Assembly: GCF_013167455.1 (NCBI RefSeq)
Contig: NZ_CP038328.1
DNA length: 64,000 nt
Source of the DNA: Escherichia coli O157:H7
GTDB taxonomy: Bacteria > Pseudomonadota > Gammaproteobacteria > Enterobacterales > Enterobacteriaceae
Reading direction: 5' to 3' (one strand)
A program made the position numbers. Below, piece after piece: positions 6,001 to 9,000 of this stretch (within the stretch, counting starts at the first letter, position 1; every line of letters begins with the position of its first letter).

Positions 6001-9000
6001 TTTCACCCCTGTACTTCGTGCCCCGTAAAGGATCTTCTTTTTTCTGGTCAATCCCCATATCTTTAAGCGTTCTGGTCGCTGCTGCCCTGACGGCGCATAC
6101 ATGCCCCCACTCTGTTGTTTTTGGTCTGGTGGCTTTTGCCGTGCATTGCGCCCTTCGTTGGGTAATATAGTGCCTCTCTTCATCAGTTTTTGCCTGTCTG
6201 AACAATTCTCCCCAGCGTTCAGCAGCACGCCGCCAGAGGCCGCTATTCTCCAGCGCTTCAGCCTTGTCATCACGTATCATCTGTACCCCGCCGATTCTGT
6301 CCTTTCAAAATTTGTCTTATGGCTTATTGTATGAGGGATTCATCCTACAACAAGAAAGGTCACTATGAGACTGACGCAATACAAAAAAGAGATCCTCAGT
6401 TACTTCACTCCCGACAATCTGGCGTGGGTTACTGCCGAAATTGGCAGTCCGCCGTTTGATGTCTCCGGTGTGGCTTACCTGCTGCATGGTATGGATTCAT
6501 TCAACAGCCGGTATCAGATCGAATCAACAAGGCGCACGCTGGAAGCTATGGTGCGTGATGGTCTTCTTGAGCGGATTAATGTGTATGAGCGTCGTGAGGG
6601 CGCTGGTGATGGTGTTCGTCGAAAGGTGGCGCGTTATGGCCTGCCTGGTCATTCTGTTGTGGTGCGTGACGGTGAGGGCCGGAACGGTGCAATTGACGGC
6701 GAATGTATACGCATCAATGCTACAGATGTGGTGCTGGTGGAGGGGCAATAAAAAACCCTGAAAGATTTCTCCGGGTGCTCCAGTTGCACGTGGCAGAAAT
6801 CCTTCAGGGTCAGCCGTAACGGGCCTCTGTACAGAGGGCTCCAGTTGCCCAGAGATGAGCACCCGCTACAGCCTGTTGTGATAAGCCGCTTTACAGTGAG
6901 CTCCAGTTGCTCAAAGAGGCGCGTTTTTATCACAACCTGACCGCGATAACCCGCTGTACAGAGGGCTTCAATTGCCCAAAGAGGCGCATTCTTATCGCGG
7001 CATGACGAAATCACCGTGATGTTTTCGTCGTTCACTCATCCCGATGTGTGGGAGATGCACCGGAATGAGTGCCGAAAAGCCGCTGGCTGGCTTCATGCAG
7101 TCGGACTCAGTTGCCCGGGGCGAACACCATCAACGGCCTTTTGGTGGTGATTATAGCGAATCGCGATAATTGAGCAAATACGGTGATGAGATGCGTATCA
7201 CGGTAGCGCTAAATCGTCGCCTGCATCACTGAAGCTGTAATTTCTCCATTCATCCTGCGGATTAATCCCCATCTCTTTCAGCGTTCTGTCTGCGGCCTTT
7301 TTCACATCGCCAAAGGTGACGAACTGCTCAGGCATACGACGGGTTTTACTGATGCATATCGCCCGACGTCTGGCAGCTTCCTCGCGTTCACTGTCCGTTT
7401 CTGCGTGAAGAAGAACCTCAGCCCATCGGGTCGCCGCACGTCGCCATAAACCGCGCTCCTCAAGTTTCTGTGCCACGCTGTCCGTCATCACTGGCTTTAC
7501 CTCCGGCTGATTACTGCTGACTGTTTTTCTGCTTCATCTGCTCCAGTCTCCGCTTCAGTAGTTCGCTGGCTACTGATTTATCTTCTTCCGTGACTTCACC
7601 GCAAGGTTGCCCGTTCAGTCCATACCGTGCGCCGCCAGCGACAATGGCTTTCAGGTATCGCGTCGTGTGGATGTATGAGGTTAATGCGCCACGTAATACG
7701 CCATGACCAATCGCCAGTTCCCGCGCCTTCGCGTCCTGCAACATATCGTGTATCACGCCAGCCTTAAGGGGTTTTATATTCTCTGCCCCAAACAGTTCAG
7801 GCCAGTACTCAGCCAGTCGGTTTATCCTCCTGCGGTTTTTTCGCTGCCGCTTTGTCATGTGCTGCCACGGTATGCGCCGTGATGGTTTACGTGTGGTCTG
7901 GTCCTGTTGTGTGGTCTGCTGGTTCATGTTGTGCTCCTGTCATTCAGAACGGAATATCGTCAGAGAACGGGTCATCACCTCCCGCTGGTGGCTGATTCCC
8001 CCGTGTTCCGGTCTGTCGTTTTGCTCTTTCCAGTGCTTCGGTCGCCTTCCCCTGTTGCCCCCGCTTCCCGCCAGGACGCGCCGAACGGGCACTGATTACG
8101 CTGTCAGCGATAACCTGCCAGCCCTGCCGTATTTCTCCGTTCTGTCCGGTCCACTGACTGATCTGCATGTTACCCGCCACGCTGATAAGGTCGCCTTTTT
8201 CATGTCTCGCCAGCGCGTCGGCCTGCTTACCAAATGCCAGGACTGATAGCCATAACGTCGCCTGTCCGTCCTGTGCCTGACTGCATGGCAAAGATACCGC
8301 CATACGCGCCAGCGTCATCGGTGTGCCCTTGCTGGTCTGTTTTACCTGCGGGTCGTCCACCAGCCGTCCGTAAGCTGCAATCTGTGCTGTCATGGTCTGC
8401 GCTCCTTGTTCCGGTACTCTTGGATAATACCCATTGTCATATCGAATAAATCACATGCCGCTTTTTCTGCATCTTCCGCTTTCAGGTCATACAGCGTCAT
8501 GAAATGGTAAGTGATCGCCCGTGCTGCTCTTTTGCTGTTTGCTGCATATTTCTCATAGATTTTTCCTGCCCGCTCTTCAATATCCCGTCGGAACTCTTCA
8601 CGTTCAAACAGGTCACGGTGTATCAACATCAGCGAATCATTCAGCCATGTCACATCGGCGTATACCGTTCGCTTCCAGACAATCAGGATCGGAAGTTTAT
8701 GTTTGTCGCAGTGATGCAGATGTTCGTCAGGTATATAAAGCGTGGCTCTGCCTCGTACCGATACGAACCTCACAACAGATTCCGGTTCGGTTAAATCGAT
8801 AGCGTGTGAATGTGATTTTTTGGCGTGTTTCTCTGTCATAAAATTTTTCTCAAAGGAATAAATAAAAATTTATGCCCAAAAGGTGTTCAACTGTTCACCT
8901 TTTGCTATTTCGCCTTTAGATTCATGAAGTTAAGGGGTGAACGCTTTTTGTAAAGGTGTTCACCAACTGTTCACCCTGCTCACCCGCGACTGTTCAAAAA

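Follow-up and report, generated by a model that had tools for sequence, protein, structure and literature searches.

A FinO-domain gene in a P4-related phage satellite of Shiga toxin-producing Escherichia coli and a neighbouring hairpin array as its candidate RNA partner

A FinO-domain gene behind the primase and origin of a satellite island

The stretch of Escherichia coli O157:H7 DNA analysed here (64,000 nt of contig NZ_CP038328.1, assembly GCF_013167455.1; hereafter the window) carries an AlpA-type, P4-related Gram-negative phage-inducible chromosomal island (GN-PICI) integrated beside yicC in a Shiga toxin-producing E. coli (STEC). Within this island, four co-oriented and tightly packed genes at 7198-8839 encode, in reading order, a conserved protein (gene 1), a single-stranded DNA-binding protein (SSB), a ProQ/FinO-domain protein and a PerC-family regulator (Table 1), in the layout and at the coordinates of the original prediction, and we are highly confident of the identity of both the island and the operon as read. 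Gene 1 and ssb overlap by 4 nt (ATGA), ssb and finO are separated by 16 nt, and finO and perC by 19-22 nt, with the perC start placed by the Prokaryotic Genome Annotation Pipeline (PGAP) at the ATG at 7488; AGGAG-type ribosome sites were read from the sequence ahead of ssb, finO and perC. Profile searches of Pfam, NCBIfam and PHROGs, together with matches in the PDB, agreed with the three protein labels that had been proposed. The SSB was matched by PF00436 (5.7e-15) and phrog_44 (9e-40), exceeded the TIGR00621 cut-off (66.1 versus 53.95 bits) and ended in an acidic tip (...DDPFSDDIPF), as expected of a bacterial SSB, and PerC was covered over its full length by PF06069 (3.1e-29, model positions 1-88 of 90) and also matched phrog_994 (6.9e-28). 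The FinO domain at 7511-7927, on which the original prediction had been made to depend, was upheld by a full-length match to PF04352 (9.9e-26, residues 31-136, model positions 4-108 of 109).

Gene 1 had no match across Pfam, NCBIfam, PHROGs and PADLOC; its predicted structure was an alpha/beta fold (predicted local distance difference test score, pLDDT, 82) with structural relatives that are all uncharacterised, and a weak DHHA1/RecJ-like similarity was noted. None of the four proteins was matched in the PADLOC defence-system search. The ratios of nonsynonymous to synonymous substitution rates (dN/dS) of ssb, finO and perC were 0.1-0.55 across island variants, i.e. purifying selection, so the three are real genes. 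PGAP calls identical copies of the four proteins hypothetical, single-stranded DNA-binding protein, ProQ/FINO family protein and PerC family transcriptional regulator, and copies so named occur at ≥99% identity in 63 complete E. coli genomes, mostly STEC of O157, O103 and O111. The gene content is ordinary and is already named correctly by standard annotation.

Sequence matches of the FinO-domain protein in the PDB were the N-terminal domain (NTD) of ProQ (5nb9, 1e-12), RocC (7rgu, 3e-12), NMB1681 (3mw6, 2e-6) and FinO (1dvo). Residues K55, Y91 and R101, which are invariant across 14 relatives, align to K35, Y70 and R80 of the RNA-binding surface of ProQ, and a basic motif, TKRQRKNRRRxNRL, lies ahead of the domain. 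The protein scored 59.8 bits against the ProQ equivalog NF003434 (cut-off 127) and 55.8 bits against the FinO model NF010317 (cut-off 136), and so is a member of the family but an orthologue of neither ProQ nor FinO; it also matched phrog_21591, a phage family with no assigned function. The 138-aa product is thus an uncharacterised satellite-borne member of a known family, found at the DNA level in only ∼2% of complete E. coli genomes, and judging from its sequence the FinO domain very probably binds RNA. FinO domains recognise a generic hairpin with a 3′ tail, and ProQ binds hundreds of RNAs (PMC9977716). No ProQ/FinO gene is mentioned in the PICI literature of PMC10111431, PMC6092414 and PMC11773190.

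The island, whose gene names were taken from the PGAP annotation of a 99.8% identical locus, fills the dinD-yicC interval in strain E2855 (∼16 kb), and nearly all its genes are co-oriented on one strand. It has the co-oriented int, alpA and primase genes, the origin after the primase and the ∼10-20 kb size without virion or lysis genes of a GN-PICI, and the alpha-type primase, type I iterons and CI-type immunity RNA of a P4-like element; no sid, delta or psu was annotated by PGAP in identical or near-identical islands, the profile search having covered some open reading frames (ORFs) only. The 287-bp gap between the primase gene and gene 1 is filled with TGTTCACC/GGTGAACA octamers; seven of the nine exact TGTTCACC octamers of the window fall within 8892-9113, whereas chance predicts 1.85 for the whole window, and this octamer we take to be the type I iteron of the satellite P4 origin. 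The origin that had been proposed near the block therefore corresponds to a P4-type iteron cluster. A P4/P1-style RNA immunity switch, made up of the C4 and IsrK-like RNAs, lies upstream of the Icd-like gene; these Rfam family members (11982-12172), absent from the original prediction, are rival candidates for the FinO ligand, and the related islands L004, L007 and L010 carry one to three tandem C4 copies. In the GN-PICI plan, an integration zone, a Bro zone with the C4 (= CI) and isrK (= seqA) RNAs, a replication zone (Primase, SSB, DUF5906) and a dynamic late zone follow one another (PMC10111431), and the gene order found here agrees with it.

The tight co-orientation of the four genes stands, but the operon as first delimited may be too narrow: the scan detected neither a terminator nor a convincing promoter between the primase gene and gene 1, so that the four genes may be the tail of a long early transcript under the C4/IsrK switch rather than a self-contained operon.

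Relatives of the FinO-domain protein were found mainly in Escherichia, with Salmonella and Citrobacter outliers and Serratia-like ones; the peptide scan of viral contigs gave three loci, and that of genome contigs six, two of which were clearly island-like. In every island examined, finO comes after the primase and origin, at a distance of one to three genes. The order primase-[hypothetical]-SSB-FinO-PerC recurs in E. coli (L007, L009, L050-52, L055-57), Salmonella (L003-5) and Escherichia albertii (L012); Citrobacter L006 has FinO-PerC with no SSB, the IMG/VR island L010 has SSB and two tandem FinO paralogues with no PerC (5695-6905), L011 (Serratia-like) and L013 have FinO alone, and in L009 finO is split by a frameshift (4539-5151). 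The replicase swaps between D5/Pox_D5 and DUF927 while the SSB-FinO-PerC order persists, and the FinO and PerC genes abut or overlap by at most 32 nt across the islands. Of the genes in the module, finO has diverged the furthest within the E. coli lineage, at 68-93% nucleotide identity (ssb 85-98%, perC 89-97%); its synonymous divergence (dS) is high (0.7-0.85) and its dN/dS ordinary, which looks like old alleles exchanged by recombination rather than positive selection.

The hairpin array after perC and a matching hairpin in Shiga toxin phages

The 446-nt spacer between the perC stop and the convergent gene contains the 62-bp repeats that had been put forward as a candidate source of an RNA partner of the FinO-domain protein; three copies are present between 6814 and 7006, with 62 and 65 nt from one to the next. 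Seven hairpins, five of them related (units 0-4), follow one another in the predicted fold of the perC-sense (minus) strand of the spacer. Each of the five has an apical stem of 4-5 bp (GGGC, GAGC or GUGC) and a 7-nt loop, AACUGGA or AAUUGAA, with a YUNR motif on the minus strand. The minimum free energy was −182.1 kcal/mol on the minus strand (z −7.5) and −166.8 on the plus strand (z −5.3), and RNAalifold over five islands recovered 145 pairs in consecutive hairpins. When a covariance model built from units 2 and 3 was run against the window, only this spacer came above E = 0.01, the one further listing being the opposite strand of unit 2 (6869-6940, E = 0.09). A structure-fitted alignment of 16 units had 98% of its cells paired and double-sided changes at 14 of 17 pairs; none of 500 shuffles reached the observed values, and slid controls paired at 30-45%. 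The arms differ between units and are complementary all the same, such as CCGCGAUAA/UUAUCGCGG versus UUGUGAUAA/UUAUCACAA.

Strand asymmetry was seen at several points of the array. On the perC-sense strand the island units have 16 G·U versus 3 A·C appositions (13:0 without the recombinant unit of L052), a bias that favours a structure formed on this strand as RNA, or as a single strand; the stem of unit 1 is closed by G·U pairs on the minus strand only, and unit 0 with its U-run has the form of an intrinsic terminator in the minus-strand direction only. The spacer diverges by ∼0.07-0.11 per site between islands, and the dS of its flanking genes is 0.46-0.70. A search of Rfam with a threshold as lax as E ≤ 1 gave no match to the array. 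The candidate promoter of Table 1, which may start an RNA of ∼390 nt, lies in a near-invariant block 21 nt past the perC stop. The proposal that the repeats are a FinO partner has thereby gained in silico support, as a conserved, covarying array with a terminator in perC sense, and we regard the array as probably a functional structured RNA.

Other readings of the spacer fared less well. A protein-coding origin of the repeats (minus-strand ORF 6649-7035) was rejected, since the 62- and 65-nt spacings and indels break the frame and PGAP annotates nothing there; an attP or HE-PICI-type integration site is unlikely, the array lying ∼8 kb from the integrase gene and its arms being separated by ∼40 nt, in contrast to core-type sites. 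A plus-strand hairpin at 7555-7576 with a weak T-tract had suggested an antisense RNA across the finO/perC junction, a reading likewise dropped because terminators occur at the level of chance (16 versus 12.5 expected), and the finO coding region has no excess folding (z +1.1 and +0.3).

The array has a counterpart in Shiga toxin (Stx) phages. Unit 3 is identical at 54 of 61 nt to a single site in the 933W-type Stx2 prophage of EDL933, within an 8.4-kb giant late gene for a polyvalent protein with LPD38/LPD5 domains, unit 4 is 88.9% identical to the PhiR5_2 allele over 72 nt, and the interior of unit 1 resembles the POCJ13-type allele. The phage hairpin occurs once per phage at a constant position of the giant gene (∼nt 5510-5590), in 183 phage records, nearly all Stx-converting Sepvirinae, and in 31 IMG/VR contigs. 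It is in frame, encoding a variable linker around G-L-Q-L-P between the conserved LTLYRREKL and KILYPEDIRKGPYY; its apex, GGGC-UCCAAUU-GCCC, is conserved, and its arms come in at least four alleles, all self-complementary (GCCGCGATAA/TTATCGCGGC, ACCCTGATGG/CCGTCAGGGT, CCAGATTTGGTTAC/GTAACCAAATCTGG and the PhiR5_2 form). A stem kept through different sequences within a coding region implies that nucleic-acid structure is under selection in the phage as well. Strand bias in the phage units is opposite to that of the island units, with two non-Watson-Crick positions favouring the mRNA strand. Together these features suggest an unrecognised functional nucleic-acid structure of Stx phages. Identity with the precursor of the Stx-phage micro-RNA 24B_1 was discarded, as that locus is intergenic, from lom to vb_24B_43, outside the giant gene.

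Among E. coli genomes the element occurs in two contexts only, the giant gene and the post-perC spacer, and the perC-sense strand of the island is the antisense of the phage mRNA. Phage copies were present in 9 of 11 listed island-bearing genomes versus ∼6% of other genomes, a comparison confounded by STEC lineage. Hairpin homology and co-residence thus suggest 933W-like Stx phages as candidate helpers of the island. The array and its allele-by-allele likeness to the giant-gene site are undescribed in the libraries and literature searched.

The site just past the array behaves as a hotspot for cargo and defence genes: in strain SCU-171 (L052 1682-3910) a type II restriction endonuclease and a Dcm methyltransferase gene are inserted there, units 1 and 3 of the same island being fused into a broken hybrid, and Citrobacter L006 has GmrSD and HEPN genes further downstream. 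PerC genes are frequent PICI cargo (PMC6092414, PMC11773190), and this island has three PerC paralogues, of which the pair at 5809-6280 is called differently or as partial by PGAP in some strains (L001). Downstream of the third PerC gene (window 5363-5600), there are repeats of a AAAGTGCGCAAAAAACTGCGCA-type motif, with palindromic pairs of TGCGCA ahead of T-runs, which resemble bidirectional terminators, and a similar motif lies downstream of the Salmonella island perC (L003 9006-9167). Within positions 1-5185, the accessory zone further contains an element of the IS66 insertion sequence (IS) family (frameshifted tnpC 2931-4390, tnpB 4440-4787, tnpA 4784-5164), which strain E2855 (L001) lacks; there is an IS2 fragment at the window start, and the distal island end beyond IS66 has genes for a YeeE/YedE transporter (1566-2702) and a Q-family antiterminator (862-1254). 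On the other side of yicC, a JUMPstart element (25836-25874, 55 bits) followed by a low-GC stretch (28000-34000, 31-38% GC) fits the waa region for the lipopolysaccharide (LPS) core near yicC and is unrelated to the four-gene block.

Table 1. Genes, RNAs and hairpins of the island and the matching phage hairpin (window coordinates unless a locus is named)
Feature	Coordinates	Strand	Basis or remark
Gene 1, 149 aa, conserved, function not assigned	8390-8839	minus	ORF; stop overlaps ssb start
ssb, 149 aa, DDIPF C-terminal tip	7944-8393	minus	PF00436, TIGR00621, phrog_44
finO-domain gene, 138 aa; basic tail residues 1-38, FinO domain 31-136	7511-7927	minus	PF04352
perC, 97 aa, small PerC-family regulator	7198-7491	minus	PF06069, phrog_994
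Candidate sigma-70 promoter, TTGCTC-16 nt-TATAAT	7150-7177	minus	sequence reading, alignment
Hairpin unit 4	7072-7144	minus	predicted fold; matches phage PhiR5_2 allele
Two unrelated conserved hairpins	7033-7071 and 7004-7029	minus	predicted fold, alignment
Hairpin unit 3	6940-7001	minus	matches 933W-type phage allele
Hairpin unit 2	6875-6936	minus	compensatory arm and apex changes versus unit 3
Hairpin unit 1	6812-6873	minus	interior resembles POCJ13-type phage allele
Hairpin unit 0, long, AACUGGA loop	6754-6811, then U6 to 6748	minus	intrinsic terminator for perC-sense transcript
Phage hairpin, ∼61-70 nt	L018 9001-9061 (EDL933 933W-type prophage); also L019-L049, L053, L054		
Replication origin, TGTTCACC/GGTGAACA iterons in both orientations	8880-9117	none	octamer cluster
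P4-family (D5/alpha-type) primase-replicase	9127-10953	minus	phrog_864 3.8e-188, TIGR01613 7.8e-27
Three small ORFs after Icd-like gene	11579-11764, 11366-11575, 11130-11321	minus	PGAP
Icd-like gene	11757-11927	minus	PGAP
C4/CI-type immunity antisense RNA	11982-12069	minus	Rfam RF01695, 73.8 bits, gathering 45
IsrK-like RNA (P4 seqA-type leader), hairpin + U9 terminator	12096-12172	minus	Rfam RF01394, 52.1 bits, gathering 50
AntA/AntB antirepressor-family (Bro-zone) gene	12894-13742	minus	PGAP; relatives carry PF08346 AntA
AlpA-like helix-turn-helix regulator	13810-14025	minus	PF12728 2.8e-07, PF05930 Phage_AlpA 1.7e-05
Tyrosine integrase	15059-16321	minus	PGAP, ORF; next to yicC (16511-17374)
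Convergent 128-aa gene, no Pfam match; begins variable accessory zone	6365-6751	plus	PGAP, ORF; replaced or interrupted in relatives
Two tandem PerC-family genes, 100 aa and 55 aa	5978-6280 and 5809-5976	minus	profile matches, PGAP

Candidate ligands of the FinO-domain protein

The reading that we favour runs as follows. Once the island is de-repressed, the P4-family primase would fire the iteron origin, and gene 1 and SSB, translationally coupled, plausibly serve the replication of the excised island, the DDIPF tip of SSB presumably recruiting host SSB partners. The 138-aa protein would act as a stand-alone FinO-domain RNA chaperone and PerC as a small transcription regulator. The partner of the chaperone would be the ∼390-nt tandem-hairpin RNA directly after perC (∼7143 to 6748, minus), made either from the conserved promoter-like site or by read-through as the 3′ untranslated region (UTR) of perC; its long hairpin and U6 end would be the type of 3′ end that FinO domains bind. 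Loop-loop pairing of the array with the giant-gene hairpin, assisted by the protein as in FinO/FinP/traJ, would then lead to interference with, or sensing of, the helper phage. The array is preferred as the ligand because it is adjacent and strongly structured, ends in a hairpin and U-tail, and has loops that face a complementary target stem-loop in the manner of FinP and traJ. We infer, on these grounds, that the array is transcribed, bound by the FinO-domain protein and paired with phage mRNA. The chain as far as the array being the FinO ligand is held tentatively, action of the array on the phage giant gene is doubtful, and the complete picture, in which a satellite FinO chaperone and a multi-hairpin antisense array form an allele-matching RNA system for interfering with, or sensing, any 933W-like helper at hand, is for now speculative and on balance unlikely.

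Several observations weigh against this reading. Within the array, the apex of unit 4 is broken by a 1-nt deletion in this window (it is intact in relatives), the −35 hexamer of the candidate promoter matches at three of six positions and the site was missed by the promoter scan, and most island loops (AACUGGA) would pair with the common phage loop (UCCAAUU) at only six of seven positions. As to the statistics, the alignment used for the pair counts had been fitted to the structure model, the strand-bias counts rest on about five to six independent substitutions, DNA-level inverted repeats also give strong folding z (the origin reaches ∼−10 on both strands), and either a recombination mosaic or constraint could account for the spacer diverging so little. 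In distribution, the array is confined to a single lineage of E. coli islands, occurring in ∼112 of the 5426 complete genomes (∼2%), and is missing from the FinO-PerC islands of Salmonella, Citrobacter, E. albertii and one other E. coli type, so the FinO-domain protein must have another or an additional ligand. No analogous post-perC hairpin array was found in the Salmonella, E. albertii, Serratia-like and L010 islands, and the 203 nt after perC in Citrobacter L006 (8819-9021), with z ∼−7 on both strands, are unrelated in sequence and include an ordinary intrinsic terminator. The array moreover follows the perC allele and not that of finO, as in L055 (finO 68%, a partial match; perC 94%; array 90-92%).

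This last pattern, together with the lack of the array in distant FinO islands, would be natural if the array were a DNA-level or purely cis-acting element unrelated to the FinO-domain protein, an explanation that we consider unlikely: a terminator or insulator stack, a captured scrap of helper late genes, or a mimic of a helper packaging or recombination site, through which several Stx-phage variants could mobilise the island. GN-PICI late zones do capture helper late genes (PMC10111431); the array lies exactly at the start of the variable zone, where a restriction-modification system was inserted in L052, its unit 0 is a terminator, and several alleles of one helper site carried side by side fit mimicry for multiple helpers. 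Decaying scrap, however, would not give four to five tandem copies of a 60-70-nt segment with stems kept by compensatory changes, and a G·U versus A·C strand bias that is opposite in island and phage is unexpected for duplex-DNA sites; the phage site, for its part, is mid-gene, in a late gene remote from those for terminase, where a pac site would be unusual. The FinO-domain protein may instead stabilise the C4/CI RNA or speed its pairing with the IsrK/seqA-type leader at the operon head, so that a chaperone from the distal end and antisense control at the proximal end would form a negative feedback like that of FinO and FinP. The finO gene of plasmids lies at the end of the tra operon and finP at traJ, a parallel layout, and on the same strand, 4 kb upstream, are the C4 RNA and the IsrK-like RNA, the latter ending in a hairpin and U9; C4 (one to three copies) and IsrK recur in the FinO-bearing islands L003, L004, L007 and L010, and in P4, CI pairs with seqA and terminates early transcription (PMC10111431). 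Against this proposal, which seems to us rather unlikely, L006 (Citrobacter) and L011 (Serratia-like), with complete upstream regions, have no C4 or IsrK at the Rfam gathering score, and C4/CI RNAs are processed, with no terminator tail, and are not the usual ligand of a FinO domain. P4 itself, to our knowledge, runs its CI immunity without any FinO-domain protein.

The protein could also be a general RNA binder with no dedicated island RNA, acting during the induced phase by competing with or mimicking host ProQ on terminator hairpins of host or helper, or by stabilising the 3′ end of its own operon. Recognition by FinO domains is generic, ProQ having hundreds of RNA ligands (PMC9977716), the islands that carry finO can have quite dissimilar non-coding DNA beside it, and no other gene of the module has diverged as far, its alleles being old and, in L010, its copies two in tandem. 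The small FinO-domain proteins of mobile elements characterised so far, namely FinO, FopA and RocC (with the plasmid RocRp RNA), however, each work with one dedicated antisense RNA or a few (PMC9977716, PMC7491321), and only chance would then explain the conserved position of finO beside an RNA-like, strongly structured element in this lineage; we hold this alternative to be decidedly improbable. Least credible of all is that the block of ssb and regulators resembles a plasmid leading region, as the original prediction suggested, and serves establishment on entering single-stranded DNA with anti-SOS or anti-restriction timing. An ssb beside small regulators does recall leading regions, and conjugative plasmids often carry FinO-domain genes (of 2798 plasmid matches, 2473 were conjugative), but relaxase, oriT, psiB and ardA are absent from the island annotation, the SSB scored 22.4 bits against the plasmid SSB model NF010292 (cut-off 265), the plasmid FinO homologues are all <60% identical, and SSB is already classed as a GN-PICI replication-zone gene (PMC10111431). 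The element is a phage satellite with an integrase, AlpA and a P4-type primase and origin, and the leading-region likeness was accordingly set aside.

Proteins with a FinO domain are familiar as RNA chaperones of plasmids and chromosomes, and none is known to have been studied in a phage satellite. Should the array prove to be the partner of the FinO-domain protein, the two would represent the first case of a satellite and a helper interacting through RNA by means of a dedicated chaperone; in STEC, carriage of the satellite could then influence the gene expression and burst size of Stx phages and the spread of toxin. The 390-nt RNA candidate and the giant-gene hairpin with its four arm alleles are concrete objects for study, and natural variants are at hand in the unit fusion of L052, the damaged unit 4 of this window and the allele swaps of finO.

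Comparison with known systems

As an element, the island resembles the GN-PICIs EcCICFT073, EcCIEDL933 and EcCIMP1 in its co-oriented integrase, AlpA and primase genes, the origin just past the primase, the PerC gene and the lack of virion genes, and differs from them in having no recognisable packaging-redirection genes (rpp, terS, capsid). With satellite P4 it shares the TIGR01613 alpha-type primase, the type-I-like TGTTCACC iterons, the CI/C4 RNA with its seqA/IsrK leader, an Icd/kil-like gene and the integration style of the P4 clade; unlike in P4, sid, delta and psu are not annotated here, and P4 has, as far as we know, no SSB, FinO-domain or PerC genes. The regulator is like PerC/Pch of enteropathogenic and enterohaemorrhagic E. 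coli (EPEC/EHEC) in matching PF06069 over its full length and in its host, an STEC with LEE-type regulation (LEE, locus of enterocyte effacement), but is one of three paralogues in a single island; PICI homologues of PerC can activate, ignore or silence LEE1 (PMC11773190).

Among FinO-domain proteins, ProQ, the NTD of RocC and NMB1681 are the best matches of solved structure, with the equivalents of key RNA-binding residues conserved; unlike ProQ, the protein described here is island-encoded and has neither the linker nor the Tudor-like C-terminal domain. It resembles the stand-alone FinO-domain proteins of mobile elements that work with one structured antisense RNA (PMC7491321, PMC9977716) in its positively charged N-terminal stretches and in the placement of its gene, which adjoins the replication module, and departs from them in that no RNA antisense to the primase or the origin turned up and that its identity to the plasmid proteins is <60%. 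Closest in logic is the FinO/FinP/traJ fertility inhibition of F-like plasmids, where a small FinO-domain protein with a basic N-terminal extension is likewise encoded at the distal end of a long operon of a mobile element. Like FinP, the candidate RNA consists of stem-loops with 7-nt loops and a terminator hairpin with a U-tail, and, as with traJ, its target would be an mRNA stem-loop of complementary sequence, a hint of kissing between loops. The satellite protein falls below the cut-off of the FinO subfamily, its host is a phage satellite and not a conjugative plasmid, and the candidate array has five related hairpins where FinP has two. Whereas FinP is cis-antisense within its own element, the candidate RNA would be trans-antisense to a Stx-phage gene; if this holds true, the logic of FinO and FinP would have been re-aimed from plasmid self-control to cross-talk between satellite and helper.

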